A stretch of DNA of 63,980 nucleotides, the filler included, from Reclinomonas americana ATCC 50394 (Eukaryota): the NCBI GenBank assembly GCA_048213135.1. It is 9 parts of 6 records of this genome, joined end to end, with 100 filler letters (N's around TTAATTAATTAA, not from the genome) between each part and the next. Parts side by side here need not be neighbours in the genome. Positions count along the whole stretch, not along the records: positions 1 to 7,332 come from PS015417.1; positions 7,433 to 14,579 come from PS015418.1; positions 14,680 to 24,378 come from PS015418.1; positions 24,479 to 29,533 come from PS015419.1; positions 29,634 to 46,230 come from PS015419.1; positions 46,331 to 51,413 come from PS015420.1; positions 51,514 to 59,965 come from PS015420.1; positions 60,066 to 62,742 come from PS015424.1; 1 more part is not named here. One strand, 5' to 3'. The notes beneath the pieces were generated by a model. That model saw only the letters and a list, made by a program, of their open reading frames with translations, did not search any database and was not told where the DNA came from. Positions 946-63,939 of the stretch are shown one piece after another (position 1 is the first letter of the stretch; each line of letters begins with the position of its first letter). The translations under genes and the position numbers were made by a program.

Positions 946-3900
946 CACCCTCTGTCTTCCACGCATTCTCTTGCAATTATGTTCACATATTATTAGCTGC
1001 TTGTTGTTTCTTCTGCTCCTTTTTTCCTCGTTGCCTCCCGCTACCACACAGACAAACACACTGTCTCTCACTCGCACAGAAGACTCACGTTTTCCTCAAT
1101 TCCATCACTGTACCCCTATCGCTTCTCTCGCACAGGAACACAACTGTCTTCTTCTCTCACTTCTTCACTGTCTATCTGCTTGCATGTTTCTGCTCTTCCC
1201 TTTCTTTCTCCTTCAGCTTGTCGCTCTCTATTACAGACAAACACGCTGCGTTTGTCACTTGCGCAGGAGATTCACTCTTCTTATCATTTCCGTCTGTCTG
1301 CCCATCTCGCATACGTTCACATCGCCTTCTGTTCTCACATGCTTCGTTCCCTTCTTGATCGTGTCAGTTTGTGTGTTCCAGCTGGTCCCTTTTTCCACTC
1401 TCCTCTCTCTCTCCCTGTCGCTCTCTATCTCACATAATCTCACCTCGTCTATAATTCTATGTTTTCATCTCATCCTCAGTTCAATCTCGATATCGCTTCT
1501 GCATTTTCTTTCCCTTTCCCCCTTCCCCCTTCCCCTTCACCCCTTCCCCCCCTTTCCCCTCCTCCCTCCTCACCGCAGCGGTCCCAGCAGATAAATGTAA
1601 CACGACGTGGCACCAAAAATGCGCACATCCACATTGGCCAAATCGTCGGCCGACGCCGTGCGCAGAATGGTGGTCTTTGACAGATTGGTGAGCGACAAGA
1701 GACCCGCAGTGACCGTGGCCTTGTGTGTTGGTGGCTCCATTGGTCTCCACGAGCAGCCGGTGAGCGCAGAGTTGAGGGCACGCTGCGACGTGTGCCGGGT
1801 GGTGAGCATTTCCCACGTGCGACTCCTCACAGATTGCCCTCTCACCTCGACAGCGGCAGTGGAACAGGGAAGTGGTGGCAGTGCGTGTCGCAGCGGGTGT
1901 CCACGATCGCCGTTCTGGAGAATGAACTCCAGGTTGCGTACCGAGGCCTCGTCAATCTGCAGGAATCGCAGTCACTAACAAAAAAAGTGCAATCTCGATC
2001 AGTATTACAATGTAAAACTGCACCTGGTCCGTCGCGCCATTGGCCAGCAGCAGGAACTCATGCAGACTGCGCTGAATGTACGAACGGAAACTGTCGCCGA
2101 GTGTCGACTGCAGTGGTGCGATGTGAGAACGATGGCACGCGACGACGGCGGCGGCAACTGTGATGGGTGTGGAACCTTTTGTGCAAAGGCGGCACTCTTG
2201 CTTGGTGAGTGTGAGAGTGGTGAGCTTGCGCCCGACGGTGACGGCTCGCTGCTGTCCTGTGCATTCGGCCATCTGCGGAGGAGAAGCGTAAGATGCCTTG
2301 ATGAAAAAATGATGCTCTCTGCACGTAGGACAGACGCAACGTGGCATCCATGTGTTGCCGCGGGCTGCGCGTTGTGGAGCGCACAAACAGCTGGCAACCG
2401 AGGAACAGGGCGAACTTTTCTTTTGGTGCCGCGCGATACTTTTCAAAGTCATCGACTGCGGACGATTGATCGATTGATCAGCACCGACGCGCACCGTGGC
2501 GAAAATAAAAAGAACGCAACTTTCGCCGGCTTCCCGTGCTCCTAGTTCCTCCCGCGTGCGCAACACAAACTCTTCCGACGGAGCGCCCTCCAGCATCAAA
2601 AACAACTCAAACAGACTGGCCAACAGCAGTAAATGAGGGGCAGGACGGACGAGTGCGAGAGGAAACGGGAGGAGACGCAACACTCGCGCCTGGCTCTCCG
2701 ACAGTCGCAGTGACTCTGCAGCAGTCTCCATCCATTCCCAGAATCTGCGGGGCGGATCAGCAGCAGAGCGACGCAGCGAAGCACAGGAGGAGGAAGCACA
2801 GCAGAGCGACGAAGCGAAGCACAGCAGAGCGAAGAAGTGAAGCACAGCAGAGCGAAGAAGTGAAGCACAGCAGAGCGAAGAAGCGAAGCGCAGCAGAGCG
2901 ACGCAGCGAAGCGCAGCAGAGCGACGAAGCGAAGCACAGCAGAGCGATGCAGCGAAGCACAGCAGAGCGATGCAGTGAAGCACGGCAGAGCGAAGAAGCG
3001 AAGCACAGCAAAGCGAAGAAGCGAAGCACAGCAGAGCGAAGAAGCGAAGCACAGCAGAGCGATGCAGCGAAGCACAGCAGAGCGATGCAGTGAAGCACGG
3101 CAGAGCGAAGAAGCGAAGCACAGCAGAGCGAATAAGCAAAGCGCAGCAGAGCGAAGAAGCGAAGCACAGCAGAGCGACGAAGCGAAGCACAGCAGAGCGA
3201 CGCAGCGAAGCACAGCAGAGCGACGCAGCAAAGCACAGCGATGCAGCGAGGCACAGCACAGCGATGCAGCGAGGCACAGCAGAGCGATGCAGCGAGGCAC
3301 AGCAGAGCGACGCAGCGAAGCACAGCAGAGCGATGCAGCGAGGCACAGCAGAGCGACGCAGCGAAGCACAGCAGAGCGACGAAGCGAAGCAAGACAGAGC
3401 GATGCAGCGAAGCACGGCAGAGCGACGCAGCGAAGCACAGCAGAGCGACGAAGCGAAGCAAGACAGAGCGATGCAGCGAAGCACGGCAGAACAACACGCA
3501 AGAAAGTACAGAAGCTGCGAAACATCCCAGCAATTCATCTCGTCCACCCTCCACTGTGCACGCAACTGCAGCTCCGGTGGCCACTCCGCCACCAACCGCA
3601 GCAACGCCGCAAAGTTGTACGTCGGCGGCAACGCAATGTGCAACAGACCACACTCGAACACTGCCGAGCGCACGACAACCTCCGCCTGTGACGACGCAGA
3701 AGCTGTGCCTCCCGTGGCTGTGGAAGACGACGATGATGATGATCCGCCAGAGGAGCCGAGCTTGCCGCCCTGCAGATGCGATTGACAAGTGGTGTGAGAG
3801 AGAGAGAGAGGGTGAAGATGTGCAAGGATGTGATCGATGTCTTGCTGGAATGAAAGAGTGAGATGCGTGTTGAAGTGTGCGAGTGAGTGTGTGTGTGGAA

Positions 3901-4010
3901 CTGGGGGTGAGAGAAGTTCGTGAATGAGACAAGACGAGCAGATTGAAGAGGGACTGTTACTGCATGTGCAACACAAAGCGTGTGTCTGTGCGGGCGTGTA
4001 TGTGTGTGTA

Positions 4011-4041
<31 letters not shown>

Positions 4042-4339
4042 GAGAAGAGAACGATATTGAGATAGATGATGCAACACACGTGTGCATTTGTGTCTGCTTG
4101 CGATTACAGACAGCAGGCAGCGAGTCTGAGTGTGTGTGTGTGCGAGTGAGAGTGTGTGTGAGAGAGAGAGACTCAACTCGTCCACCACCAGCCGACGAAA
4201 AGGCACCACTACTCGCACTCACAGTAGAGCTGCCTCCACGACTTCCAGCACCAGCAGCAGAAGAACCACCTCCACTGCCAGTGCCACCAGCAGTAGCAGC
4301 AGGCGTGCTGCTCACGTTCCCAGTGCGTCGAGTGGCCAT
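1..4339 (-). CDS. TBCCD1: TBCC domain-containing protein 1 (multi-exon; 3' end runs off the window)
   Basis: ATG at 4339 (MATRRTG...). Spliced exons give VVVRSAVFECGLLHIALPP, FWEWMETAAESLRLSESQARVLFELF, VRIFGATSCYIYLLGPLR|SVSIFGCRRCTIVLGPV, LAPYNTYYAALEEHL...WDKP and QMLDPQEFFTFVVPFEMAGDTR|GNPFVVPEAY, colinear with the TBCCD1 family as I recall it. Confidence 0.88.
2760..3490. repeat. 23-bp minisatellite (about 31 degenerate copies) inside a TBCCD1 intron
   Basis: Unit GCACAGCAGAGCGA(C/T/A)G(C/A)AGCGAA repeated head to tail. On the minus strand it lies between a GTACTT donor and a CCGCAG acceptor. Confidence 0.95.
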
Positions 4340-5465
4340 GGCGCGAAAAAACGACAGAGAAACAAAACAAACTTTCTTGTGCGTGTGACTGTGTTTCGAC
4401 AATCGCTCTCTCTTTCTCTCTGTCTTGTAGTGTTGCTGTTGCGCTGATACACACAAGAGCGCGCGCGATGTGACGATGCACCGTTTGCGCGAGCAGGTGC
4501 ATTTGTCTGCGATTGGCCTCGATTTTACATAATTGCGGCCGATCGGCAGCGGCAACAACAGCAGCTTTACTAATTCAAGCAGCAGCACAACTGCATGATA
4601 ATCACCATCTTGAGTGAGCACCAGAGGCGAAGACTTTCCGGAAAACAATATCATGAATTCGAATTCGAAATGCGCATGCGTGCTGTTTCATGCCGGCGTT
4701 TCTGCAACAACAACAACAACACCATGCTACTCCATGCAGCACCGCAGCTGCGAAATAATCAGCATCTCAAGCGAGCGCCCGAAGCACAAACTTTTCGGGA
4801 AAGTTTGAAAGAATGCGAATTCGAAATGTCACAGCTGGCGTTACTGTAACGTGGACACGTAGAACGATGAGGTTGCGTTCGATAGGCAGGTGTTATTCAA
4901 CTGCCGTTGCGGCCCGCAGGTGTGAACTCCTCGAAAAACGGAAAACACTTCCAGTTGAATTCGTAAATTCATCACCAAGCGGATCCAACAGCCCTGGAAT
5001 CCTTTCCCGGCAATTGCCTTGCCACTTCTACTATATTCATATCGCACAATAGCACTCCGTACGGCCATCTTTTCTTTGGAATTCAAGAAGCAGCTGCAGT
5101 TGCGTTTTCATGCATATGATCATGCAAAATGCAAATGTCGGCGTTGCGAGCTGCGATTCACCGGGAAGCCGCTACGTCCGCGTATGCCAACCCAATGTAC
5201 AATGCTCTACACTGCACAGGAGCCTCGCAGTTTTCTGACTTCGACGGTCGCCGTCCACGGATCCGCACAACGTCGACGTCGTTGAATTCAACTCTTCAGC
5301 GCACACCGCCATCAACGCACGCACGCACACACAGCGCACACCACCACAACCAGAAAACGCCAAACCAATCCACGCACTCCATTCCACGCACAAGGCGGAC
5401 ACGGAACGTCGACAAATTACAAAACACGCACACACACACGCAAGCATACGCACAACGCACACACA

Positions 5466-6391: not shown

Positions 6392-6429
<38 letters not shown>

Positions 6430-6810: not shown

Positions 6811-7376
6811 TTTCTCTCTTGCTTTCTGCAAATGAGGCAGCCTTTCTCTCTCGCATGCTTCTCGTGCTTGCACGTTCCCTGCTTTGCAGCCACCAGCAGC
6901 TTGAGAGAGGTGGCTTTTTTGTTCTGCCAGTTCTGGCAGTGGAAGAGAGAGAGAGACACACGTGATAGGCGCTCTTGAACTTCCCGTTTGCACCTTGATA
7001 ACAGAGAGAACTTGTTTACGAGAGAACGCTCTGTGCTTTTCATACAGGCAGACTCGAGCGAAGAAAGTGATCGTTACAGACGTGCCAGGAAACGCAGTCT
7101 ATCTTGCTCATCTTCCCGAAACACTCTTTGTCTCCATTGTGTTTTCCTTTCGCTCTTTCTTCCTGTGTTCCTTCTCCTGAGAGTGGGAGTGCGTGTGCGC
7201 GCGCGTGCTTCGTACATGCGCCATCTCACTTGCGTGATTTCTCACTTGCGCGATTTATCCGTAGCTGTCGTGTTCTCTTTGCCATTTCAAACTCTCTCGT
7301 TTTCATCTCGCGCACCTTTGTTCCCTTTCGTTNNNNNNNNNNNNNNNNNNNNNNNNNNNNNNNNNNNNNNNNNNNN

Positions 7377-7388
7377 TTAATTAATTAA
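7377..7388. other. Scaffolding linker TTAATTAATTAA between N runs (also at 14624, 24423, 29578, 46275, 51458, 60010 and 62787)
   Basis: Identical 12-mer with stop codons in all six frames, always embedded in N runs; an assembly artefact. Confidence 0.97.
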
Positions 7389-8074
7389 NNNNNNNNNNNN
7401 NNNNNNNNNNNNNNNNNNNNNNNNNNNNNNNNGGGGAAGGGGAAGGGGGGAGAAGGGGGGAAAAGTGGAAAGTGAGATCGACGGCGAGAGCAGAGCGACC
7501 TGAGAAAGACATCATGGAGAGACCGGGAGAAGGAAACCAGATAAAGAAGTAACAGAGCCAAGTTGGAATGACTCAATTGCTTCCCATTCTACAAGGTGAA
7601 CAGCTCGAGACTCCATACCAAGTCGCCGAGAACGGCAGCAAAGGGTCAGGAGACTGCATACGCGGTGCGGCACCGCCTGCACCGGACACATAACGCGGCA
7701 GTGGCGGCAGAGGTTCAGGCACCGGCAGCAATCGGAACGTGCCTGCACCACCAGCCTCCGCACCACCCGCACCGACAGGGCCCCGTTCGAGAGAGCGAGA
7801 GAAGAACAGAGCCAAGTTAAACACATTCCATTCCTAGAGGAACTGAGAGAGTTGGCGTGTGCAACGAGAAGATGAAGTGCTTGTGCTTCTACCTCACCGC
7901 GACAGGGAGAAGCGAGAGCAATGAGCAAAACTGAGAGATGCAACACTTCTCCTTTTCGCAGAGAGCGGGAGAGTGTGAACAAAGAAAGGAGGGAGGCCCT
8001 AACTCACTGCGACAGAAGAGCAGAGCGAACTGAGAAATACTTCACTCCCATCCCTCGCCCCTCTCCCTCTCCAC

Positions 8075-10377: not shown

Positions 10378-13300
10378 TCACAATATGCCATCAGGGGTGA
10401 CAGCAACAGACGTCACCACGACGCTGTATCCCTCAAATCGACGTACTTCTTCTCCGCTCGCCGCAGACCACGCGCTCATTCGGGCTGTCTTGTCATAACT
10501 ACCACTTAAAGAATGACAGTGTAGACAGCTGCAGGCCCGACTATCGGCCTCCTTGGCCATTTCACGCCTGTCACATCCGCTCCTCTGAAATCCGCCTCCC
10601 TCGCATATGTCATGCACACATTCACCCCTCTCAAATCCGCTCCCTCACTCGCACACCCGACAAATCTCGCCCACTGAACGACACTTGCGCCACACATAGC
10701 ACCGTCGCCGCATTCGCTGCGGCCGTCACCAATCGCTCTTCATCAACCTCTCGAGACATCTCAATCACCTCCCACAGTCTCGCTTGCAACGCAGGAGATC
10801 GACGCACCACCTCGGCCATTTGTTCCACCAACGATGGTCGATCATTCAGCAGTCGCACTGCCAACACATGCTGCTGCACATCTTCTATCGTCAATCTCCT
10901 CTTCTCATCCCACGTCTCCCACGCAAACACATGCCGTGCCACAAAGTGTTCCAGCAACGACAGATGCACAAATCCCCACTGCGTCGTGCCATACCGTCGC
11001 ACAATCGGACAGCACACGCGCGCATGCTGGCTCTTGTGGCCGAGGAACTTGTCAAATGGCCCCTCTTCCATCGGCCGGCGATCGAGTGGCGCACCACCAA
11101 AGTCCGCTCCATCATCTCCATCGTCGGCCGACCGACTATCCGTCACAGACACACGCACCACGTTTCTCTCGTGCATCAACCGTGCCAGTCCCTCACAGAA
11201 TGCCAGACACGTTTCCTCGCTTGGAACACAATCCGCGCCAAGGCGCCTCTGCTTTTCTCGCTCCCGCTCAATCCACTGTCGAATAAATCGGTCAAACACA
11301 TCGCGGCGAGTCGGCCGCTGCACGCCACTCGCGACCAACTCCGGCAACGCACGGGCCACCACTGCCAGCAGGAACGGATTCGTCACCAGTGCATCCAGTC
11401 CATGCACACTCTTCAGTACACGAATGTACTCCTCGGCAGTCAACCATCTTACTTCACCGTCATCGTCATCATCACCACCCACATGCACCAGTCGCTCAAA
11501 GTACTCCTCAATCTGCTCCTTGTTGAACGGTGCAATGTGTCGCTCCGTCAACTGTTGCATGCACAACTGTCCGCGTGTATCCACGGGAGCAAAGAGATGT
11601 CGATACTGCGTCACTCCACCCAGTACTGTCAGTGCATAATCGCCTCGGCAGGTGATAATCACCTTCACATCTCGACATACATCAAGTTGGCACACGGTAA
11701 AGAGATTCGCGTGCGCCTGACAATGCACCTCATCGTACCCGTCAAGCAATAACAGCAACGGCTCATCCTTCAGCCGTCGTACATCCGACTTACTGAGACC
11801 CATGTCGGGTGACAGTCGCCCCAGTGACTTTTCCAACAGTTGCTGGTCGACATTACGCAGTGCAACAAGTGGCACACGCACCGGTATTCGTCGCCGACTC
11901 GCTCGAGAATGCTGCCACTGTCGCCACGCTCGCCCAGCCAGCACCGACATGGTGGTGGTCTTGCCAATCCCACTGTCTCCAAACAGCACCAGTACACGGT
12001 GGGCCGTGTTGGCATCGGAGAGGAAGGCATCGACCTCCGTCAACAGATGTGTCATCTTGTCACTCGAAGAGACATCGCGCTCACAAGAGCACAGCAGCGG
12101 CACATACATCTGCATGTTCTCCCGCACACCCTCGTCAAGTTGGAAGAACGAGAGCTCACGCATGACCAATGCATGCAATCGATCTTCATACGTGCTGATG
12201 ACATGGTGGACGTTACGAGCCTCGCAAATACGAGCAGAGAATCGAGCACGCTCGTCATCCGCCAGCTGCAGTCGGGTGAGAACAGCAAGGAAGAGGCCGT
12301 CGTTGCCTACGTAATGCTGCACTGTGGCCTCCGTCGGCGCAGACGAACTGTATAATAACCAGTTCAGTTTCTCTCTCAACTGGTTCAGACCCTTCCATTC
12401 GTCAGCATCGTCAATCAGCAGCAGATTGTGACCGCCATCCAGTACAAAGCCGCCAAACAGCAGGATCGATACCAAGGCCGTCACGTCGAATGCAGCACAC
12501 GAGGGATCGCAGGTGGAGTCGACGTCAAACGCCGCACGCCAAGCCACCACTGCAGACTGCCCCTCCTTGAATAGAATGACATGCCCGGGATGAAGCGGAG
12601 CATGTAAGTCGTACCACGCCCCGATCGCCACTGGATGCATACACAATGGAGGCGTCCATACGTCGGGAGTCCACGCCCGCACATCAAAGTCGGGATGGTC
12701 GCGACTGAACTGTGCCAGCACGCGTTGACAGCGCAGACGCACAGCATCAACCACCACCTCAAAGGCCATGTTGATGCGCTGCGAGTTGATCATGCTGCGT
12801 GAACACACACACACGCACACACATACACAGAGAGAGAGAGAGGCGTAGTCAGCAAGGAGTGATGCGGAGTGATGCAGAAAGCAAGAAATTGGCAACGTTG
12901 CCGGCAAGGAACAACCCGAGTCTCTCGATCAATTTTGAGGGTGAGTCGCACAGAGGATTACATCCTACACACACAGATACACACCTCTCACTTCCGCTTC
13001 CGCTCCTTCGACTCGACTCGGGCACCAAGCCCGGCGTCGCGCGCACGACGAGACGAGTAGAGGAGTTGATGCCCAGATCCGTCAGTTCCAATACGGCAGC
13101 CTTTGCAATATTGTACGCCACCGGCTTCTCCACACCCACAATCTCCATCTGCCCGTCTCCACTCTTCTCGCGCAGCAAACGAGTGGCCTCGCACAGCAAG
13201 TCGGAGAGGAAAGACGCGGGTGACATGCCCTTCACCGCCACCGACAGCGATGAATCATGCGTCACACTCACGGGGACGGAAAACTGTGCGTTTAGGCAGT

Positions 13301-24597: not shown

Positions 24598-24984
24598 CCT
24601 CTTCAATCTCCTTTGGAGTGGCGCTCTCCTCGACGCCGAGCACACGCCGTGCCTCTGCGGGAGTCATGCGTCGCACACCACGTGCGAGGTTCGCCACGCC
24701 GCCGCCTGTGCAACAGAGACAGTGAGTGAGTGATGTCCATGAGCACTCTTTCTTTCTCTCCCTCCGTCTCTCTCTCTCTCTCGTGTGCAAGCGCGCAACT
24801 TGCTTGTGCCTCCTTGTAGGCGGAGAACACGGCGCGACCGAGCACCGCAGCACCGCTGATCAGCAGCTGCGTCACCATGCGAACAACTCCGGGATTCTGC
24901 ACAGTGAGAGAGAGAGAGAGAGTGAGTGTGTGTGAGTGTGTGAGAGTGAGAGTGTGTGTGAGAGCAGCGACGACGTACCACCAT
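24598..24984 (-). CDS. PAM16: Mitochondrial import motor subunit Pam16/Tim16 (3' exon lost in the gap)
   Basis: MV|NPGVVRMVTQLLISGAAVLGRAVFSAYKEAQA|SGGVANLARGVRRMTPAEARRVLGVEESATPKEIEE shows the typical GRAF..AY..A and MT..EA..ILGV motifs. Confidence 0.88.
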
Positions 24985-29711: not shown

Positions 29712-31116
29712 GAGCCGTGGGCCGGCGATGTGTTTGCTCATCCCACCCTGCTGGTGCCTGGAGTGGCCGACCGTGAGCGACTGGCGCCGTTCTACGATGT
29801 CGTCGTCAAGGCCATTCGCGAGGTGGGGAGTGAAAGATCAGTAGTTATTGTGCTCACTCGTGTGCTGACCGTGCTGTTCAGGTCGACGAGCATCACTTGG
29901 TGCAGATTGAGGTGTGCAATTCAAATCCCTCGTTCAGATCTTTTCTGTTCCCTCACTGCGAATGCACACAGGCTGGTCTGCAAGTGGGACCTCGCTGACT
30001 GCGTGATCGTCCAGTTCGTTGCCTTACATTGCGTGTGCCACATAGTAACCTGGGACGACATTACTGTTGGCTTCGAGCACGTTCCCGTCAGCAACGACTA
30101 TGCCAACCGCACGTGCGTGCACAAACCTCTTTTCCCCCGTCAATCTGTCTGCTCACCGTCGCCGTGGCTGCAGGGCGCTATCCATCCATTTCTACATTCC
30201 GCCACAGTTCTCACTGGAGGAGCAACTCAGCTCGCACTACCGAGTTGCGCTACAGTTTTTGTTTGCCAATCCCACCATGCACTTTCCTGTCGCTAACGTG
30301 GTGGGTAACCATGGTCAGGATGTCGAGCGCATTGGCGGCGGATGGATGCTCACCGAGTTCAGCATCCCGTCGCCAGCCGATGCCAAGTCTCTGGCTGAGT
30401 TCGACAAGGTGCGTCCACCGTTTCACCCTCATTCCCTTCTAGGTCAATGTTGAATATTTTTCCAGACGTGCAACGCTGCCGACGCGCGCGCGCTGAGCTG
30501 GATTGGCTGGGAGTTGTGTTCCTTGTTGCTCACCTGCAGCAAGGAAGGAGACGTTCTCACCCCCTCTCCCTCTCGCTCCCGCCAGGTACAAGCGGTTCCG
30601 CAACAACAAGACCGGCTGGGCGGATCCGTTCTGGAACGCCGACGGCTCGCGTAACGAGGTGATGATCAAGGCCGCATCGCGCACCTACGCTCGTGCAGTG
30701 GCCGGCCACATCGAGGACATGAGCTTTGACTCGTTGCGTGAAACAGAAAGTGCATCGCGCCGAGTCGCACGAATTCACTTTCTCCACTTCCTTTCTTGCA
30801 GGAAAACCGGCGACTTTGTGCTCAAGTTGCGTCGTTCTGCAGCGGTCAGCTCCAGTCGCAGGCACTCACCAACTCTACCCTTCTCTTCTCCCCCTGTAGG
30901 TTCACCGTGCAGCCGCCCAACGAGTGTCGCTCGTCGGTCACCGAGATCTTCGCGTCGGTCCGTCACTGGTACACCTCCGGCATGCCGAAGGTCACCGTGT
31001 CGCCGGCCAACGCCGCCACCATCACCCAGTCGGCCTTCAGCGACTCCATTATGCTGACCACGAGCTCGTCGGTCAAGCCAGGCACCCTCATCACGGTGAC
31101 CATCAAGGCGGCATAA
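29712..31116 (+). CDS. GH5 endoglycoceramidase-like glycosidase, C-terminal half (5' part in the gap)
   Basis: EPWAGD (acid/base Glu), AIRE|VDEHHL, SIHFY, MLTEF (nucleophile Glu), SWIGWE|YK and SRTYARAVAG. TAA ends at 31116. Confidence 0.88.
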
Positions 31117-35599: not shown

Positions 35600-38545
35600 T
35601 CACACGGAGAACAGTCGCACGCTCTGCTGCGGTAGCGCCAGGAACTTGGCCTGCAGCTCCTTGCCGTTCACGAGCAGCGTGGTGGGATTCTGCACGCGGA
35701 CCGACGGGAATTCGAAATGCTGCGCACGGAATGAGTGAGCAGCGCTGGCGCGAACCACTGCGACCAGGCAAGCAAGCAATCGCAACTTGTTCCTGGGCCT
35801 CGAAGTTCTGCAGAAACAAGTGCGGCTGGCGAATCACCAAAACATCTCCGTCGTGGATGGCCCGCGGCGCAATGTTGTAAATGGAGAGCGCAAATCGTTG
35901 CCCCGTTGAGTCCGCCGCCACATACGTCCTGCAAAAAACAGTCTGTCAGTCACACACACACACATTGACACACTGCACGTTATTCTTGCGCAACAGAGGA
36001 GCCGACGTCTCGTCCGACGCCAACCGCACAATTCCACACGCCAAAATGCCGTCGGCAGCTGCCGCACTCCTGCTGCTGCTCCCGTCGGCACCACCGGCGA
36101 GGAGCGTCTCGACAGTCACGGCTGCAGCGCCACCGTCGCGATGCGCCTTCTCCACTGCTTCCCGGGCCTTCCGAGGCTTGAGGTGACCCTGGACGCGCAC
36201 CAACACGTCAGCGCACTCTCATCATTGCAACAGCACCCGACATCACGACGACGGCTGAACCTTTTTCAAAACCAGCTCCTTTAGTGCGCTGAGAAACGCG
36301 CCCGTCCGCTCCAGCTCGTGCGCCGCCTCAGTGAACAGAGGATCCAATTCGAGAGCGCGCGAGAAATGGCGAATGGCATCAGCGTAGTTCTCCATGTGCC
36401 GACACACCTCGGCGCAGTTGAAGTACACATCTGGATCGCTGTCGGTGGGAGGTTTCGATAGCTGGCGGCGCACGAGTGAGCTCGTGGAAGCAGAACGTAC
36501 TCTGTGTGTGTGTGTGCCGCTGACTCACCGCCTGACCAAACGCCTTGAGTGCCGTCACCAGGTCCTTCAGATCGTGCGACACCACCATGTAGTACGACAG
36601 CGAGGCGGTTCCCAGTGCGGCCCATGAGGGTCCATCATCCACGTTGACTGCGATGGCCTTGCGAGCCAGCTGCACACTCTCGGCGACGGCATCGTTCTCC
36701 CGCGGAGTCCCTGCACGCACGCCGTCGTGCGTGAGAGCGATGCACATCGCATGCTGTTTGGGCCGCGGTCACCTCACCTCTCGCGGCGATGCGCATCACT
36801 CGTGACAACTCGCGCTGTGCGGTCTGGTTCGCGGCATCCTGTGTGAAAAGCAAGCTGTTTAGCACACAGCCTGGAAGCAAGAGAGAAACACGCGACAAGC
36901 GATCGACCTTTTCCAGCGCGGTGCGAAAGCACGTCTGCGCCGACTCCAAGTCGCCCTTTTTCCACATGCAGTGCCCCAGTGTGTTCCACGCCGCCACCAG
37001 TTCCGGATCCAGTCGCACCTGTGGTGGAGAAAGCAATGAGCAAGAGGGAGAGAGAGAGAGACGGGGAGAGAGAGAGAGCGTTTCATGCACACAACTGCCT
37101 TGGACAGGTGCGCCAGGCATTGNNNNNNNNNNNNNNNNNNNNNNNNNNNNNNNNNNNNNNNNNNNNNNNNNNNNNNNNNNNNNNNNNNNNNNNNNNNNNN
37201 NNNNNNNNNNNNNNNNNNNNNNNNNNNNNNNNNNNNNNNNNNNNNNNNNNNNNNNNNNNNNNNNNNNNNNNNNNNNNNNNNNNNNNNNNNNNNNNNNNNN
37301 NNNNNNNNNNNNNNNNNNNNNNNNNNNNNNNNNNNNNNNNNNNNNNNNNNNNNNNNNNNNNNNNNNNNNNNNNNNNNNNNCTCTGAAAAGCTCGGCAACA
37401 CATCCAACGCCCGACCCTTCAGGAACTCCACATACGCCACATCCTTGGCCGCCGCCCCTGCAATGCAAAAATAACACACAAATGAGACTCGAGGTCACGC
37501 GCTCTCATCAATGCACACACACACAAAGAGAGAGAGAGAGAGAGAGAGTGTGTGTGTGTGCGTGTGTGTGTGTGCACACGCACCGACAAGCTCATCCGGT
37601 AGCCGACTCATCACCGCACGCACTCGCTCACTCAACGCCTGCTCCGCCGACACCACCGACGCACGTCGCTGCCCTGCGCCTTTACCCGCCTCCTGCTCTC
37701 CTCCTCCACTTCCACTCTCCTGCTCATGGTCGCCCTNNNNNNNNNNNNNNNNNNNNNNNNNNNNNNNNNNNNNNNNNNNNNNNNNNNNNNNNNNNNNNNN
37801 NNNNNNNNNNNNNNNNNNNNNNNNNNNNNNNNNNNNNNNNNNNNNNNNNNNNNNNNNNNNNNNNNNNNNNNNNNNNNNNNNNNNNNNNNNNNNNNNNNNN
37901 NNNNNNNNNNNNNNNNNNNNNNNNNNNNNNNNNNNNNNNNNNNNNNNNNNNNNNNNNNNNNNNNNNNNNNNNNNNNNNNNNNNNNNNNNNNNNNNNNNNN
38001 NNNNNNNNNNNNNNNNNNNNNNNNNNNNNNNNNNNNNNNNNNNNNNNNNNNNNNNNNNNNNNNNNNNNNNNNNNNNNNNNNNNNNNNNNNNNNNNNNNNN
38101 NNNNNNNNNNNNNNNNNNNNNNNNNNNNNNNNNNNNNNNNNNNNNNNNNNNNNNNNNNNNNNNNNNNNNNNNNNNNNNNNNNNNNNNNNNNNNNNNNNNN
38201 NNNNNNNNNNNNNNNNNNNNNNNNNNNNNNNNNNNNNNNNNNNNNNNNNNNNNNNNNNNNNNNNNNNNNNNNNNNNNNNNNNNNNNNNNNNNNNNNNNNN
38301 NNNNNNNNNNNNNNNNNNNNNNNNNNNNNNNNNNNNNNNNNNNNNNNNNNNNNNNNNNNNNNNNNNNNNNNNNNNNNNNNNNNNNNNNNNNNNNNNNNNN
38401 NNNNNNNNNNNNNNNNNNNNNNNNCCTGCGCGACATGCTGCTGCCGCCGCCACTCGCCCTCCAACGCATACCGCTCAAGCTCGTCCACCAGCTGCGTCTC
38501 TGCAACCCACGTCGATGTCGACGAAGACGACGCCGATGATGCCAT
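35600..38545 (-). CDS. TTC5: Tetratricopeptide repeat protein 5 (TPRs plus C-terminal OB fold)
   Basis: FLKGRALDV, LSKAV|RLDPELVAAWNTLGHCMWKKGD, RELSRVMR, DGPSWAALGTA, DPDVYFN..YADAIRHFSRALELDP, FALSIYN and FPSVRVQNPTTLLVNGK. Confidence 0.92.
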
Positions 38546-38631
38546 CCGCTCACACTACAACACCCGCGCAAAACAAAGAAAAGCGCGCGAAAATTTGTGT
38601 AAACTCCAAATTTTGTTTACGTTCGTGTGTG

Positions 38632-41600
38632 ATGGCCACGAGCGTTTCTGCCGGTGCGAACAGCGATGGAGGGTGTGAGTGGATGGAGCAGCTTACACAT
38701 CGCAATCGGATTGTGCGAGAGGCGGCACTGGGCAAGCTGCAGCGACATGTGACTGCAGCTGCGCAGGAGAGACAAGTCGGTGTGTGCGCACGTGTTGTTA
38801 CATGTAGACGCCTGTCACTGAGCTGCGTTGGGTGATGTAGATACGCTGGTGCGTCTGGAGGAGCACATCTTGTCGCTGATTCGATCGCATTCGGTGTGGG
38901 AGGCCATGAGCTCGGGGTTTTATGCGGCACAGGTCTCCTTCCAGTCCGTCTCTCTTGTCTTCGTGTGTGCTGTTGTCTCATGTGTGTGTGTGTGTGTGTC
39001 GAGGAAGGCGCTCATTGAGACGCGGCTGTCGTCGAGCGAGTTCCGCGCGGCGGTGTTGGAGGCGTGTCTCGGCGATTTGGAGCACCCCGAGGTGCGCGTC
39101 AGGTGCGATGTTTGCGACTGTGAGGGAGGGAGAGGAGGAGGTCGCTGATCGCTCACCACAACTACGCACGTGTAGGCTGTCGATCGCCGAGGCTCTGTAC
39201 GCACTGACTCTTGTCGATGGGCTGTCCGTGTTTCTTCCCGTGCGAGAGTTGCGTGTCGTCCGTCGCCGAGGAGAAAGCTCTCACACAGTGATCGCGACCG
39301 ACTCTCACGTGCCGCGCCACAACGCAGAGTGCTGGAGGAGTGCATCATGAGCAACTATCACCGGTCGGTGGGGACGGTGAGTGGCGACGCAGAGGATTCG
39401 GTCGGTGATTCGGGTCGTGTGTCGCCGTCGGTGAGTCTTCTGTGCGCCCTGCCCCCACTCCCCACTCTCTGACTCACCATGTGGATGTGCGCGATACAGG
39501 CTCCGCCATTGTCACCGCGCAGCACGGCACTGGGAGTGAAGCGAGTGGATGTGCTGGTGGGTCACCGACGTGCGCTGTGTAACTCTCGCATCGTTCCTGC
39601 TGTCTCACGAGAATCGTCGTGGTGTCGCAGCATGACACAGAGGGCTGGAAGTCGTTGGAGACGTGCATGAAGGCCCTGCAGCGCATCTGCGAAGCTCTCG
39701 GCCCGGAGCTGTTTGCCGAAATCGCCAACCCCGAGTTCGTGCAGTTTGTGTTGGACACCCTGACGCACACCAATCGGTTTGTGCGCGAGACGGGCTTCTT
39801 CACGTGCGCCTCGTTTGCGCGACTGGCCAGCGTCGAGTTTCTGGAGAGGTGTGTTGCGCGCTTGTTCTGTTCTCTCTCCTCGACCGCTGATGTATGTGTG
39901 TGTGTCTGTGTGCAGCATTGCTGAACAGTTGTCCAAGTCGCTGGCGCGTGGCTTGGCCGACAATTGGAGTCAAGTGCGCTTTGGTTTGTTTGCGTACGTT
40001 GGTAGCTTGTTGCATCGCATGGGGGGTGTTGACGGCACGCATACTGCAGCGTCCAGTGTGGCCACACGCGAATTCTTCACCAAGATTGTCGACGATCGCG
40101 AGCCGTACCTGCCGACTCTGGTGCCACCAATGTGTCTCAATCGGTACTATGTGGCGGAGGGAGTGCGGCGATACTCGCAGGAGACATGGCAGCGTGTCAT
40201 GGGAGACACCGGGCGCACCATCGTGGCCCGCTTCATCTCGCAGGTGGTCGACTTTTACATTGCGCAGACGGAGGCCGAGAATCATGCCGTCCGCGAGGTA
40301 CTTGGCTCCAAGAAACAGTGCTCGTTGCGCTTTCGTTGACTGTGGATGTGCGTGTGTAGGCAGCGTGTCAGTGCATCGCCGAGTTGGCTCGCCGTGTGGA
40401 TCGGGAGGTGTGTGCTCTGTATCTTTTACCTGCGTGATCGTCGAGCTGCTGACACGCGGTTGGCGCTGCGAGTAGGCGGTCAGTCCGTATGTGCCGCGTC
40501 TACTCGACGCCTTGATTGTGTGTTTCCGCGACGACAGCTGGCCCGTGCGAGATGCGGCTTGTCTCGGTGAGCGCGCGTGCGATGTTCTTCCCTGCACGAG
40601 CTCTGATTTATGATTAACTGTCTCGCGCAGCGTGTGGATATTTTGTGGAGTCGTTCCCGGAGGAGTCGCGCGGCGAGTTGGACGGACTCTTTGAGGACTG
40701 GTTCAGCCAGCTGTCGGACAGTTGCGTCGCACAAATAAGACGTGCAAGAGGGAGAAGAGGGAGTACTGAGGTCCGTGCGACAGACATTTGGAGTGTGCGC
40801 GAAGACAGTGCGATTGCGCTGGGACGGGTGATGCGTGCGTACGGCAGCGAGGCCGTAACGCGCGTGGTGGAGTATCTGCGGGCGAACTTTGATCGCGTGC
40901 GTGAGCAACCGGATGACTCGGTGAGGTATCGCGGTCTGGCCAACACGACGACATTCGGCGTGGCCTCCACCAAGACTCTGCGTGACAATGATCCGCACAT
41001 TCACACGGATCAGCAGGTGAGACGCAGCAGCAGCGTGTGTCACACAGCGTGGTGCTTGCTCATGGCATCGATGGGCAGGCCTTTTCGTGCGGCTCGTTGG
41101 CTCCGCGTATGCGAAAAGGCAGCAAGACCAAGTCGTCGTGCGGTTGCATGAACTCGTTGTTCACCCGCGAGCGTGAGCCGTGGGAGTACACCGACGGCTG
41201 TGTGTACCTGCTGCGGTGCGTGTGCATTCCTCTCTATGTGCGTGTCGAGTGCTCACCGGCGCGACGTGCAGTGAGTTGGCGGCGCAGGATGTCGACGCTG
41301 CGATTGAGTTCATCCCCAAGCTGTTTGCTGCAGTTGCGTACATCGCACGTTGTTCTTTTTTCCCGGCTACAGCGGTTTCACGCAGCGACGCACTCCACAT
41401 GCAGGCACGAGTGAACAGCTTCACGCACTATTACAACCTGTGGGAGACGGTGTGGAAGCAGCTGCCGACAATCGCCTCGGTGAGTCTGCACCCATTCGCC
41501 ACTGCTAACGCGCACCACGCAACTCACTCGCTCGTGCGGCGCACGCAGCACATTGGCAAGCGTCGATTCAAGAACGAGTTCTTTGACGAGACCGTACAGG

Positions 41601-41782
41601 TGGCCTGCGAGTGCCTCGAGCGCAGCGACAACCCTCTGGCGCTCTCGGCCACCGGCGAAGCTCTCGAGCGTCTGAGTCACCTGATCGGCGCCCGCGTGTT
41701 CTGCAGTCGCCTCGACGATCGCCACCGCGACTGCATCTCCCGTCACGCCGATGTGTGTCACCTCAACGTCGAAGCTCGGTAA
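38632..41782 (+). CDS. Conserved HEAT/ARM-repeat protein
   Basis: HDTEGWKSLETCMKAL, LTHTNRFVRETG, GLADNWSQVR, MCLNRYYVAEGVR, ENHAVREAAC, DDSWPVRDAAC and LSDNIWSVRED are HEAT-repeat signatures. Confidence 0.85.
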
Positions 41783-43397: not shown

Positions 43398-45719
43398 ATG
43401 GCGGTCTGTGCGAGTGGTGCTCACTGGCCTCACACGCAACGCGCTCACTCACTCGCTGCTGTCATTCTTGTGTGTGCGTGTGTGTGTTCGTGTGTGGAGC
43501 AGGATAAACGCTCTCCGTATCCCGCGGGCACCTACGCGCCCTCTGCACCCTCTGCGCCTCCGCCTTACTCGGCGTATCCCAGCGCATCCACGCATCCAGT
43601 GGCACCGCCGCCACCCTATGCTGTTGCGTGAGAAGTGATGACGTGTGAGAAACAAGCACAGAGACGCACAGACACACACATTGAGAGCGAGAGTTAGAGA
43701 GAGAGAGAGAGAGAGGTGTGTGCGTCACTGTGCGTGTGAGAATCCATCTTTTATTGTCTGCTCACATCATCATCATTATCACATGTCCGCGCGCAGGATG
43801 CTCCTCCGCCTTACAGCAAGGGCGCAGCCTCGGCTCCTCCACCGCCAGCCTACTATGGTGCTGGTGCGGCCTTTGCTCATCACTCAGCGTCTGTGTTGCT
43901 CTTCTCTCGTGCGCCTCATTCACATGATAGTAGGCAAGGGTGGCGAGTACGGAGGTGGCTACGGTGGTGGCCCAGGTGGTCCGGGTGGTCCTGGTGGTGC
44001 TGGTGGTGGTGGTGGTGGATATGGCGGGTCGCACAGTGACGACATGCGCTTCACCGACGTCAGGGCGCAGGAGAACTATGATCCTGAGATGGCGCGCAAC
44101 CAGTACGTCGGGGCACATTTGACGCGCGCCAAGAACCGTTGCGTGCGACGAAGGCTGTGCTTGTGTGTGTATCACCTTCTTATCGGTGATCGCAGGCTTC
44201 ATTTTCCGTGTCTATGCGGTGCTCGTGCTGATGCTCACCATTACGACGTCGCTCACCGCCCTGCTCGTCTTCAACGACAGCGCGCGCCAGTGGGCGCAGA
44301 GGAGCGTGCGTCACTCTTTGATGGTGTCAATTGTCGCCGCGTGTGTGTGACTCTGCTGCTCATTCGTGTTGTCGTCGCCGCCGCAGCTGTGGATGCTCAT
44401 CACGTCGTGGGTCGTCAGCATGGTGATCATGTTTGTGCTGTTCTGTGTGCGCAAGAAGGCGCCAATCAACGCCATTCTGCTCTTTGTCTGGGTTGCGTCG
44501 CCGCTCTTTTACAGTGCTTTCTACCGCGCTGGCTGTTGTCGTCTCATCTCACCGCGCTGCATGTCTCGTGTAGACCACTCTGATGTCGTGGTCAGTGGCA
44601 GTGACGTGCAGCTTCTACAATCAGCGCGTCGTGTTTGAGGTGCGCCACGGTTGTGCCTGCTCTCATATGCGTCGGCAAGTGCACTCACGCTTACACACGC
44701 ATTGGCGTCTGTGTGCAGGCCTTTGGTATCACGGCCGGCATCTTCATCACGCTCACCATTTACGTGCTCGTGACCAAGGCGGTGCGTTCTCGACCCTTCT
44801 TCGTCACAGCCAGTCGGCCTCGTCTCACAGGAAAGTTTCGCAGGATTTCCGCTTTCTTGGCGGCTTCCTCTTTGCGGCGCTGTTTGCGCTGGTCTTTGCC
44901 TCGCTGATCCAGGCATGTTGTCTTGCGCGTGTGCGTATATGCGTATGTCACCCTCACTCAACTTGCCCGATGCACGCACACACAGTGGCTGTTCCCGCCG
45001 GCTCCTGGATGGCTCAATATGGTGTTTGCCGTCATTGGTGCCCTCGTGTTCACTGGGTGTGTTTCCCTGATCCTGTCAGGTCGATGTGCTGCGTCGAACC
45101 TGTCGCTGACTTTCAATGTGTGTGCGTGTGTGCGTACAGCTACATGTTGCGTCTCGTGGACAGTCGCACGATGAAATCCCACACTCACGACTCACTCCTA
45201 TTCGTATACCCTTGTTGTCAACGACGCCAGTCTGTACGACACCTCGTGAGTCTTTTTTTGCTTCTCATTCTCCGTTATGTGTCTCCTTTTGACTCACTGT
45301 TCCTCTCTTACAGGATGCTGTTGCGCCGCGACTCCCCACCGGTGTGCTTGACCACTGTGCTTCTCCTACTCATTCCCCCCCTCTTTGTAGGTTGCATACC
45401 TTCTCCAACGATCTGGACGAGTGGGTTCGTGTTCTTTTGCGCCCTGTTTCATTCGCACTCTCCTGCTCACCGCTCATGTACCGCCGTGCAGGTTCTGCCA
45501 GGTCTCTATTGTCGTCCCCGAATCTCTGTCCCTCTCACTTTGCCCCTCGCTCACCTCTAGTCTCTCTGTGTGTATTCCCATGGCACAGCCATCAGCTTGT
45601 TCCTGGACGTTGCGTAATCACGCCGCCGCATTATTTCGCTCTGCAATATCGATCGCTGACTCGCTTCACAGTTCATCAACCTTCTCCTCTTCATCCTGCG
45701 CATCTTTGGTCGCAAGTAA
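43398..45719 (+). CDS. Bax inhibitor-1 / Lifeguard (TMBIM) family membrane protein
   Basis: Pro/Tyr/Gly-rich N-terminus, RFIFRVYAVL, KAPINAILLFVWT, DFRFLGGFL. With microexons included the C-terminus reads FTGYILYDTSMLLHTFSNDLDEWVLPAISLFLDFINLLLFILRIFGRK*. Confidence 0.92.
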
Positions 45720-52051: not shown

Positions 52052-52124
52052 ATTCCTGTGGCACAGTGGTTAGTGCGTCTGCTTTACGCGCAGAAGGTCC
52101 TGGGTTCGACCCCCAGCAGGAATA
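52052..52124 (+). tRNA. tRNA-Val (anticodon TAC)
   Basis: Acceptor stem ATTCCTG/CAGGAAT, D stem GCAC/GTGC, anticodon arm TCTGC-TTTACGC-GCAGA, T arm CTGGG-TTCGACC-CCCAG, discriminator A. T-run terminator from about 52130. Confidence 0.95.
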
Positions 52125-58141: not shown

Positions 58142-58729
58142 ATGGCAGCAAAGGCGGCGGGAGAAAGCCGCGATGAGGCGGCCTTTCTGCGGCGACTGAC
58201 TGCCTTTGAGACATCACTCACCGCCAATGCGAAAGTAGTCGATGACACGGTGGGCACACACACACACACAAGAGAGAGACAGGGAGGGAGGCGCAGGCAC
58301 ACACATGGAGAGAGACAACTGATGCGACACAAAAGCTCTCACACACACGCGCTGTGTGATGTTGCAGATTACTCTGTTGGGATCGCTGGAGAGCAAGCTG
58401 AGCACGTTGGAGACGCGACTGCAGCCGTTGCATGATGCGATGAATGAGACCTCGTTGATCTATGACAACATTGATGGCGCCATTGCGGAAATCGAAAAGA
58501 CACTGACACAGTTTGAGGAGGCGGCGATGTTGGAGAGCGAGGCCAATCGCGGGTCTGTGTTGCACGCTGTTGCTGCGATGCTTGTGCGTCGTTTGTGTTC
58601 ACTCTCCGCAGTATTCAACCGGATGGCCTGTTGGACTACTTGGAGTTGGTCGATCGTATCGATGACATGCTGGCGTTCTTTAGTGATTATGCGTCGTTCC
58701 GCAGCTCGGATCGCGTGCTGGACGCCTTG
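58142..58729 (+). CDS. EXO70: Exocyst subunit Exo70, N-terminal exons
   Basis: ITLLGSLESKLSTLETRLQPLH...NIDGAIAEIEKTL..GLLDYLELVDRI..FF...FRSSD. Confidence 0.8.
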
Positions 58730-58827
58730 GTTTGTTGCCCGCCTTCTCTGAGTACACACAGTCTCGCCTCTCGCAACCTCACTGCGTGTGCGTGTGTGTG
58801 CGCGCGCNNNNNNNNNNNNNNNNNNNN

Positions 58828-59965
58828 ACATTGGTCGACGCAGTGTGAATGATGCCGTCGGGTGGCAGGCGAATCGTCTGCGCACCAATGGCGCGCGTCA
58901 CGTCAAACAGCAACCGATGACAGATGGTCTGCGTGTCGGCGAGCAGGGAGCGGAAGCGCTCCAGACCCGCATCGGTGGCAATCTGCAACACGCCCTCCAA
59001 CTCGAAGCGCCGCTCGTCGAGGTTTTGCAGAAAATCCAACAGCACAAAGAGGCGATCCGGCAACTTGTCCGACTTGATCACCTGCTCCAGCGTGGCGACA
59101 AAGTGGTCGACCGACGGCCGCAGAATGCGACCCAGCACATCCGCACACTCCAACGACGGGAGAATCAGCTCCGCAATCTCTTGCTCGCTCTGCGGTAGAC
59201 GGAAGTGAGAGGAAGGGAAGGGGGAGAGCGTAGTATGCTGTTCGCCACACACACCTCGATCATCGACACAAAGGTGTGAATGTAGGGGATTGATGCGTGC
59301 GTGCCCTTGTCATATCGCGCGTACTTGGAACTGTGCGGGGAGGGGGGGAAAAGAGTGAATCACCATCACCATGATCCTGCGCGCAAGGAGCACGGAGGGT
59401 ACCTCAAGCCGAGCTCCGAGCGATGAAAGTACGATGTGAGACCGGAGGCAATGCTGCCCACAAACGACGCATCGGTGCGTTCGCTGCCCAGGTCGTCGGT
59501 CTGATCGTCCATTTCACCTGCACTGGCGAGTCTGAGTCGAGAGGCGTGACGGCAGACACAAGCGTGGAAACGCAACTGCGCAAAGTTGGATTCTCAATGT
59601 GTGACGACAGCGCACTGGAGGACGAGTTGCGACGGAATCCGGTGGCTTTCAGGTGCTTCAGCGACCCGAGCAAGTCGGCAGACCGCACCTCGGTGATGAA
59701 CTGCACGCACGCACGTCAATTAAGGCTGGAGTACAACCACACCGCGCTCTCTCGTCGATCACACACCGGCAAGTGGTCTGCGTAATTGGCAAACTCCAGT
59801 CGCCTGGCAATGCCACGCAGCACATCAATTGCCCGATCGGCCAGCCACGGCTGTCCTTGCCGAATGGTGGGATCCACCGACTCACTCGACCGCCGCACCA
59901 CCGTCTCGTACTCCTTGGCGATCGCACGCAACGCAAACTGCTTGCTGTTGCGCTACGAACGACAA
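58828..59965 (-). CDS. EXO70: Exocyst subunit Exo70, central exons (inverted contig)
   Basis: FITEVRSADLLGSL, YARYDKGTH, EQEIAELIL, LFVLLD and LPPDGIIHTASTN (Exo70 PxDGxVH motif). Confidence 0.8.
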
Positions 59966-60065
59966 NNNNNNNNNNNNNNNNNNNNNNNNNNNNNNNNNNN
60001 NNNNNNNNNTTAATTAATTAANNNNNNNNNNNNNNNNNNNNNNNNNNNNNNNNNNNNNNNNNNNN

Positions 60066-62621: not shown

Positions 62622-62670
<49 letters not shown>

Positions 62671-62893
62671 AGAAGAAGAAGAGAGCGCGTACGACGAACG
62701 AAACGAAACGGAAACGGAAAGGAAACGAAAACGAAGAAGAAGNNNNNNNNNNNNNNNNNNNNNNNNNNNNNNNNNNNNNNNNNNNNTTAATTAATTAANN
62801 NNNNNNNNNNNNNNNNNNNNNNNNNNNNNNNNNNNNNNNNNNAGAGAGAGAGAGAGACGACGACACGACACGACGACACCACACACACGACGT

Positions 62894-62979
<86 letters not shown>

Positions 62980-63029
62980 GAGCACACACACACATGAGTG
63001 CATGCCATCAACCACAGACACACACGCAT

Positions 63030-63939
63030 TTGTGTCATGACACACCGAGGGGAGAGCATTGGCGCAGGCGGGCATCGGGTTCGTCACATCGCCGCACACC
63101 TGCAGCTGATACGTGCGGTCCTCGCCGTCACGAGTGCCGCGCCAGACTGCATGCACACATACACAGTGAGTGAGAGAGAAAGGAGAGAGAGAGAGAGGGA
63201 GAGTGAAGGAGAGAAAGGGGGAGCGAAGAAAGAGAGAGAGAGAGAGAGAAAGAGAGCACACACATGCACACAAACACGCACACACACACACGCACAAAGA
63301 CACACAGGAGGGGGAGAGAGAGTGCAGAGGGAGAGAGAGAGCACACACATGCACACAAACACGCACACGCACGCACGCAGAGAGAGAGAGAGAGAGAAGA
63401 GCAGAGTGAAGAGAGAGGGAGAGAGACGGAGAATGAAGAGAGAGAGAAATGGAGAGATGAGAGAGCACACACAGAGACACAGAGACACGCACGCACACAG
63501 TGAGAGAGGAGAGAGAGGGAGAGAAGAGAGAGAGCACACAAAAGCACACACGCACACACAGAGAGAGAGAGGAGGGGGGGGAGTGCACAGAAAGAGAGAG
63601 AGAAGAGAGAGAGAGAGGAGGGAGAGAGAGAACACACAATGCATGAGTTTCTCCGCTCCTTCTCACTCTCCTCATGTCCACAAAAAAACACGCAACTGTA
63701 CGAGCCGCTCGGGTTGATGGTAGAAGTCAGATCGTACTGAGTCCTGTGCGCGCGCACACATACAAAGAAAGAAGGAGACAGCGTGAGACACTCATAAAGA
63801 GTTAGTGACTCTGACTGCGAGAATGAAACTTTCCGCCATCGGGCGACCACTTGCACGGCCATGTGCGGGCATTGGCGGTGACAGCAGCGCACAGCAGGCA
63901 AAGAGCCAGGGCAGAGAGCAGGAGAGTGAACTTTGACAT
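63030..63939 (-). CDS. Secreted or membrane protein with a mannose-6-phosphate receptor homology (MRH/ATG27-like) domain, 5' exons
   Basis: Signal peptide MSKFTLLLSALALCLLCAAVTA, then C..GGK|TQYDLT...SY|IWRG..TYQLQVCGDV...C. Confidence 0.65.

Follow-up and report, generated by a model that had tools for sequence, protein, structure and literature searches.

A putative class of GTTGCG 5' splice sites in Reclinomonas americana, offset by one base and associated with exons that do not end in G

How does an intron begin when the exon before it is unable to end in G? The question is raised by a 63,980-base stretch of DNA (55% G+C) from Reclinomonas americana ATCC 50394 (assembly GCA_048213135.1), here called the window, which is clearly eukaryotic and intron-dense. 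According to the original prediction, about 29 of its introns start with GTTGCG, a donor displaced by one base from the ordinary one and used where the last exon base is not G. The hexamer is present at all 29 of the 29 positions claimed, on the strands claimed. Bare GTTGCG is mildly enriched in the window (86 on both strands vs 62–73 expected), GTTGCGT strongly so (42 vs 14.5 expected), as is AGTTGCGT (18 vs 3.3 expected, 5.5-fold).

Intron positions were determined with a protein-to-DNA spliced aligner that accepts any GT-AG intron, and GC-AG introns at a fixed penalty, and leaves the bases around the splice sites unweighted. For the MFP gene (gene body 15400..20700, +), whose exons match ECH_1, 3HCDH_N and 3HCDH in Pfam, we aligned the first 40 by id, of 640–760 residues, out of 120 homologues, the best of which are 29–49% identical. 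Fourteen introns were placed by 38–40 of these 40 proteins, and a fifteenth, on an inverted piece to which the first 160 residues of the same 40 were aligned, by 37. The latter, at 14833..14894 (−), has donor A/GTTGCGTTT (the slash marks the exon–intron boundary), acceptor TAG and a length of 62 nt. GTTGCG also opens the introns at 18143..18208 (+; C/GTTGCGTCC, 66 nt; 40/40 homologues) and 20536..20603 (+; A/GTTGCGTCC, 68 nt; 39/40). GTTGAG at 16649, which had been proposed as a related donor, begins the intron 16649..16704 (+; T/GTTGAGTCA, 56 nt; 39/40). The other eleven of these fifteen donors read G/GT (16068, 16162, 16281, 16839, 17738, 17980, 18267, 18409, 18484, 18811 and 20077, +), each with 38–40 of the 40 homologues. 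Verified MFP exons are as small as 16 and 23 nt. One proposal for this gene is ambiguous: two GTTGCG introns, at 18575 and 18652, around a 3-nt exon (18575..18711) were not recovered by spliced alignment, and 39 of the 40 homologues choose instead a single C/GTAAAT intron, 18580–18711. By reading, the one-intron and two-intron models encode proteins of equal length.

A gene for a HEAT/ARM-repeat protein (38425..41700, +) provided the second set. An exhaustive search returned 608 relatives at E ≤ 0.001, the named ones including proteins of a choanoflagellate, a sponge, stick insects and ticks. P0121, the closest homologue, can be aligned from end to end, with an identity of roughly 60% by eye. 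Spliced alignment of 45 of the 65 listed proteins with 600–760 residues, with a further look at the ten best-scoring, yielded twelve introns, three of them starting A/GTTGCG and the other nine following G. The three are 40721..40783 (+; A/GTTGCGTCG, 63 nt; 44/45 homologues, 10/10 closest), 41333..41404 (+; A/GTTGCGTAC, 72 nt; 24/45, 8/10 closest) and 39248..39327 (+; A/GTTGCGTGT, 80 nt; 12/45, 5/10 closest and 1/10 with another acceptor). Of all verified introns this last has the least support; it is used by P0121, with LPVR/EVLEE aligned and no gap in the printed alignment. The ordinary donors, all G/GT (39103, 39849, 39984, 40298, 40408, 40567, 41017, 41216 and 41480, +), were chosen by 23–45 of the 45 proteins and 8–10 of the ten closest.

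Across these 27 homology-verified introns (15 MFP, 12 HEAT) the predicted abundance of the class holds, seven being of GTTG type (six GTTGCG and one GTTGAG). GTTGCG accounts for 6 of the 27 donors compared with 1.07% of all GT (p = 3.7e-7). The predicted dependence on the −1 base is equally clear: GTTG-type donors follow A, C or T in 7/7 cases and all other donors follow G in 20/20 (Fisher p = 1.1e-6). A non-G base before GTTGCG is unremarkable by itself, as in the window G precedes 8 of 86 GTTGCG, and its share before GTTG and before GT overall is 14.6% and 18.6%, respectively; the informative half of the association is therefore the invariant −1G of the ordinary class. That class is not, as had been supposed, mainly GTGCG/GTGAG but a loose G/GTNNGT in which GTCTGT, GTGTGT and GTTTGT are equally common: A or C followed by G/GT, then G at +3 (13/20), any base at +4, G at +5 (16/20) and T at +6 (13/20). 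The variant class is fixed as GTTG, then C (or A), then G; among the 27 independent claimed sites, 21 have T at +7 and 15 have A at −1. In this set the ABM-like triplicate described below (21329, 22255, 23305) counts as one event. On this sequence evidence, H/GTTGCG(T), and less often H/GTTGAG(T), where H is A, C or T and mostly A, is a real and abundant class of intron starts.

The displacement by one base emerges from a weight matrix built on the 20 ordinary donors (11 MFP, 9 HEAT) with the GT columns left out. Read in place, nine verified variant sites score −10.8 bits, but a slide of one base raises this to +6.0 bits, as had been predicted; they score −1.6 bits at register −1 and −10.6 bits at +2, and the ordinary sites reach 5.0 bits against their own matrix. 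The 27 independent claimed sites give −10.2 bits in the true register vs +5.0 at +1. Base composition at −1 in the variant class (A15 C6 G1 T5) is close to that at −2 in the ordinary class (A10 C7 G1 T2; chi-square p = 0.72). A stands at −1 in 17/29 claimed vs 14/57 unclaimed GTTGCG (p = 0.004), and T at +7, matching the ordinary +6 T, in 23/29 vs 19/57 (p = 8e-5).

The observed junction positions, −1 association and one-base-shifted fit to the consensus may be pictured as follows. The ordinary donor is (A)G/GTNNGT with a seemingly obligatory exon-end G; in exons for which this G is unavailable, its place would be taken by the G that opens the intron. The early reader would most likely be the 5' end of U1 snRNA, whose canonical form is ACUUACCUG; it would pair with A-G-U-U-G-C-G-U as with AG/GUGCGU, reading AG/(U)UGCGU with one mismatch and one base off. 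Later steps would then select the true GU, so that the cut would still fall in front of it. We infer U1, and then U6, as readers of the shifted register from established knowledge of U1–donor pairing. As for the GCG core, optimal pairing at all other positions may be needed to offset the mismatch, or a matching snRNA variant may exist. The first base of the downstream exon in the verified cases is A, A, G, A, A, G or C, which means that the junction cannot move one base later without a frame break and that cleavage lies in front of GU. Taken as a whole, a real H/GTTGCG(T) class in which +1G replaces the exon-end G and early U1 pairing runs one base out of step is the reading we regard as probable, though well short of certain.

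The same sites could also be drawn with U1 in its normal register, paired to +1G and +2U, and with the additional U (+3) bulged, so that the class would be real while the helix as a whole would not shift. The two consecutive U's permit either drawing with an equal number of pairs, and PMC4856993 lists a +2/+3 bulge register for 68 human 5' splice sites. Under such pairing an exon ending in G would gain one more pair, but no base is rarer than G at −1 (1 of 27 independent sites), and the −1 base instead copies the ordinary −2 preference for A; we accordingly consider a bulge unlikely.

Apart from their donors, the introns of the shifted class look like the others. GT opens each of the 8 verified variant introns, and CAG (7) or TAG (1) closes it; their median length is 66.5 nt vs 67.5 nt for the ordinary class, which also ends in CAG or TAG. 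The branch-point-like motif YTSAY, the probable branch point, lies 13–25 nt from the 3' end in 7/8 variant introns and within the last 45 nt of 19/20 ordinary ones. The same length, branch-like motif and YAG end mark both classes as ordinary U2-type GT-AG introns. Removing the variant introns restores a frame collinear with the homologues (40 MFP, 45 HEAT) and continuous in the TTC5_OB profile. U12-type introns, with donor RTATCCTT and branch motif TCCTTAAC, are likewise marked by a second sharp donor motif beside the main one, but were rejected: the donors here are GTTGCG, TCCTTAAC is absent from the printed introns, and these share their branch-like motif and YAG end with the ordinary class.

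A shared terminal heptamer is also what one would expect if the GTTGCG introns were copies of one mobile family (introners) that brought its own terminal sequence. Once 8 nt had been trimmed from the start of each intron and 4 nt from its end, however, the mean local alignment score was 7.1 between variant introns, 7.7 between ordinary introns and 7.4 between the two; the intron bodies are thus no more alike than ordinary ones and do not form a mobile family. Lengths and 3' signals, too, equal those of the ordinary class, and we give this origin hardly any credence.

Outside MFP and HEAT, the clearest site is that of a TTC5-like gene, at 35720..35786 (−; donor A/GTTGCGATT, 67 nt). Residues 1–46 of the upstream exon match Pfam TTC5_OB profile positions 37–83 (E 1e-6) and residues 1–28 of the downstream exon match 85–112 (E 1.5e-6); PDB entry 2xvs_A is matched at residues 97–138 and 145–163. 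This continuity fixes A/GTTGCG at 35786. A PDB search with the upstream exon returned nothing useful.

A further site occurs in a small ABM-like gene present as a tandem triplicate (20950–23760, +). Alignment of the three copies shows conserved blocks between diverged, indel-rich stretches; conserved patches also lie within the would-be intron. Exon 2 ends ...TTCGG(C/G)TA, followed by a conserved GTTGCGTGTG, and reading through would end the protein at TAG. Splicing at TA/GTTGCG to a conserved 47-nt block keeps the frame (YSMSPGALGSVTFAFI, YGLSPGALGCVTCAFI, YSLSPGALGSATLAFI) and then joins the next exon. The block is coding, because four of its codons that vary among the copies do so by synonymous third-position changes. 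By alignment and frame, the intron (2a) of paralogue 1 is 21329..21403 (+; donor A/GTTGCGTGTG, splitting the in-frame TAG); the same intron lies at 22255..22346 in paralogue 2 and 23305..23370 in paralogue 3 (both +, donor A/GTTGCGTGTG), neither being independent of the first. A donor at 21307 called by a de novo gene finder was rejected in favor of 21329 on paralogue conservation and frame. All three copies carry a consensus-like G/GTGCGC inside the 47-nt exon (21417, 22360 and 23384, +). Given the synonymous third-position changes downstream, it is apparently unused; in this genome a donor takes more than a sequence that fits the ordinary motif well.

How far the remaining claimed sites resemble true donors was assessed by a local ranking in which all GT/GC within 45 nt were ordered by two-sided coding potential together with acceptor, branch and length terms, the donor sequence itself being ignored. 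Claimed GTTGCG ranked first in 11/28 cases and first or second in 20/28, and verified ordinary donors in 10/20 and 13/20. The corresponding values were 8/57 and 22/57 for unclaimed GTTGCG and 53/380 and 108/380 for random GT. The claimed set behaves like true donors in this donor-neutral ranking; the TTC5-like site is among those of rank 1. The GTTGAG form may be commoner than the single case originally noted, at 16649: AGTTGAGT is enriched across the window (11 vs 1.8 expected). Examples lie at 60934, 53859, 53870 and 44962 (all −) and at 5923 (+), the first being of local rank 1 and also called by the neutral gene finder.

The list of about 29 GTTGCG intron starts thus stands wherever it could be checked, with support that varies by site. 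Seven are placed exactly as intron starts, 14894, 18143, 20536, 39248, 40721 and 41333 by spliced alignment and 35786 by Pfam continuity; the three ABM-like sites stand as one event, and 18575/18652 are ambiguous. Frame logic and family motifs point to 24799, 30733, 30826, 44138, 44492, 45146, 45320 and 45609, and more weakly to 43623 and 30244. At 2340, 2520, 2681, 42017, 59576, 61130 and 63696 the hexamer marks putative donors.

Might many GTTGCG sites be no intron starts at all, but products of frames forced through a fragmented draft with frameshift errors, inverted pieces and gaps? Small contigs, some of them inverted, have been stitched together with stop-codon linkers to make the window; a rival model does as well as the one with 18575 and 18652, several sites lean on micro-exons of 6–15 nt, and the de novo finder disagreed at several sites. 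Against this, ten sites are fixed by evidence blind to donor sequence, the claimed set ranks like verified donors in the neutral test, and AGTTGCGT is enriched in the raw sequence itself; we find this account very improbable. The gene finder, also donor-neutral, recovered 5–6 of 14 MFP introns, and 7 and 10 of 26 verified introns. It missed most verified ordinary introns as well, and its tallies are not used as evidence.

Several observations weigh against a simple one-base shift obeying a strict −1 rule. The de novo finder hit just three of the listed donors (16649, 35786, 40721), with other donors called near several more. The firm statistics come from two genes, MFP and HEAT, within one 64-kb stretch. 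Nearly all variant sites carry GCG, in contrast to the looseness of ordinary donors at +3/+4 (+4: T 8, A 6, C 5, G 1), and the absence of GTTCTGT or GTTTTGT forms is not explained by sliding the register alone. One claimed GTTGCG donor, at 44492, follows G. Conversely, candidate ordinary donors without a preceding G are C/GTGAGT at 45246, C/GTGCGT at 44306 (with a rival G/GTGTCA at 44327) and 30113, and A/GTTTCA near 63824 (−). Given these candidates, the −1 rule may not be absolute.

The strict GCG core bears directly on whether the class is read by a dedicated or altered snRNA, for instance an additional U1 that pairs its position 8 with U, or a U1 with a 5' end co-evolved with GUGCGU/GUUGCGU. 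Such strictness suggests a tight, specific complement, and precedents are found in two sources: lineage-specific splice signals with co-evolved snRNA in Entamoeba (bioRxiv 10.1101/2022.06.08.495308) and variant U1 genes in humans (PMC3561869). Nothing in the window speaks for such an snRNA, since Rfam at gathering thresholds matches one tRNA gene there (52052–52124, +) and no snRNA gene, and ordinary donors vary too much at +3/+4 for a changed U1 to be required. We judge a dedicated reader improbable. A wider form of the shifted-register reading is that the genome as a whole uses a two-register donor code, in which an exon-end G is effectively obligatory, about a quarter of introns use +1G instead, U1 and probably U6 sit one base off, and cleavage occurs at the true GU, possibly with changed U1, U6 or U5 or with changed proteins of the U1-C/LUC7 type. 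We advance this tentatively, putting its chances at slightly below even.

It is still debated by what means the spliceosome, once U1 has left, settles on the precise point of cleavage. The human shifted register, with only a few dozen sites, and the bulged registers have been studied on a handful of minigenes. That U1 reads some human 5' splice sites in a register shifted by one base is stated, with credit to Roca and Krainer 2009, in PMC4856993. Those sites share with the present ones a non-G exon end, a GUU start, a consensus fit only when slid by one and cleavage at the real GU. They differ in their core, AAGU rather than GCGU, and in frequency, the human shifted register being one of several non-canonical registers in PMC4856993, whereas here the form accounts for 7/27 verified introns. 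The invariant −1G (20/20) of the ordinary class is likewise unlike the human situation, and the present class is known from sequence alone. Human registers with a bulged nucleotide or asymmetric loop, as described in PMC4856993, also keep cleavage at GU, and a +2/+3 bulge draws GUUGCGU equally well, but the −1 preference found here fits a shift and not a bulge. In ordinary eukaryotic donors a missing exon-end G is compensated by intronic positions, according to PMC8283771. Here, too, donors without −1G have a stronger intronic part, but as a discrete second motif offset by one base instead of a better match in the same register.

Searches for the motif GTTGCG/GTTGCGT, in DNA or RNA form, found, among the matches listed, no splicing report by title or abstract start in a literature coverage that excludes most subscription journals. 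For shifted or non-canonical registers in a protist or intron-rich context, the literature searched held no report of such a class. What looks new is the seemingly routine, frequent use of a recognition mode described in humans as a special case. If the reading is true, this organism would offer a large-scale natural uncoupling of recognition register from cleavage site, and a natural model for cleavage-site choice in which a single exon base foretells the register. In such a genome, standard gene finders whose training used one donor matrix would mis-annotate about a quarter of introns, along with the many exons of 6–20 nt.

Most of the sites read by frame logic lie in a BI-1/TMBIM-like gene (+). 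Its first putative intron, 43623..43796, is weak (donor T/GTTGCGTGAG, 174 nt, in a low-complexity N-terminus, with an in-frame TGA after the hexamer; local rank 5). The intron 44138..44195 (C/GTTGCGTGCG, 58 nt; rank 1) would give ...AKN-R-FIFRVY...; a GTGCGA five bases past its donor is, by frame reading, out of frame with its acceptor. At 44492..44573 (G/GTTGCGTCG, TAG acceptor, 82 nt; rank 2) the predicted splice joins ...LLFVW to TTLMSWSVAVTCSFYNQRVVFE. The candidate 45146..45230 (T/GTTGCGTCT; rank 1) follows a 6-nt exon and precedes a 15-nt exon encoding YDT, which we take to be a mark of the family, like the other BI-1-like motifs of the product. Another 6-nt exon precedes 45320..45390 (T/GTTGCGCCG, TAG acceptor; rank 1 with a low score). 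The putative last intron, 45609..45671 (C/GTTGCGTAA, 63 nt, with an in-frame TAA after the hexamer; rank 6), would join ...AISLFLD to FINLLLFILRIFGRK and a stop. The putative micro-exons of this gene, 45140–45145 (6 nt), 45231–45245 (15), 45314–45319 (6), 45492–45501 (10) and 45589–45608 (20), are of a size that would defeat ordinary gene finders. An ordinary donor in the same gene, G/GTGCGT at 44782, is fixed by Pfam Bax1-I, whose profile positions 99–118 are followed by 120–142. The Bax1-I match ends with the exon upstream of 44913–44985 (profile 142), a probable GC-AG intron (CAG/GCATGT ... CACAG). A homologue search with region 1–120 of the BI-1-like open frame found nothing.

In the GH5-like gene (+), family motifs guided the frame reading. 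The putative intron 30244..30318 (A/GTTGCGCTA, 75 nt; local rank 4) is in frame and free of stops, with a CTAAC branch-like motif, and its T-rich third codon positions suggest that it is non-coding. The next, 30733..30801 (C/GTTGCGTGA, 69 nt), precedes a 24-nt exon and has local rank 1, there with acceptor 30899; the exon upstream of it matches Glyco_hydro_5_C profile positions 1–17 weakly (E 0.12). The third, 30826..30899 (A/GTTGCGTCG, 74 nt; rank 1), has a pyrimidine tract and a TAG acceptor, and by frame reading no phase-2 GT other than 30826 within about 30 nt leads into the downstream frame, which ends in TAA. A homologue search with one GH5-like exon and PDB searches gave nothing useful.

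The PAM16-like intron 24706..24799 (−; A/GTTGCGCGC, phase 1, 94 nt) was read with motifs that we assume to be those of the PAM16 family. Between the exon-2 frame and a (GA)n run, 24799 is the only GT that joins both open frames. Pfam searches with single PAM16-like exons gave no Pam16 match, and single short exons in general mostly had no Pfam match. In the TBCCD1-like gene (2335..2686, −) the claimed donors 2340, 2520 and 2681, of local ranks 6, 2 and 1, are putative, as is the EXO70-like intron 59518..59576 (−; A/GTTGCGTTT, about 59 nt; rank 2), proposed from a frame reading in which read-through is also open. In the MRH-like gene (63744–63824, −) the only frame-consistent first intron drawn starts A/GTTTCA and would, if real, be an exception to the −1 rule.

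The window itself is joined at eight places by linkers of the form N44-TTAATTAATTAA-N44 with stop codons in all six frames (7333–7432, 14580–14679, 24379–24478, 29534–29633, 46231–46330, 51414–51513, 59966–60065 and 62743–62842), and it has further gaps beside these. It is a pseudo-scaffold in which genes may be cut or adjoining genes unrelated. MFP is split by strand, with its first exons at 14680–15338 (−), the remainder at 15400–20700 (+) and a small gap between; similarly, an EXO70-like N-terminal part (58356–58731, +) is separated by a small gap from the Exo70_C part (58848–59952, −). From the sequence, small contigs seem to have been placed in arbitrary orientation. Finally, the open frame at 10634–12928 (−), 765 codons long and bearing a NACHT domain (Pfam E 4e-10), is apparently intronless, in contrast to its intron-dense neighbors.

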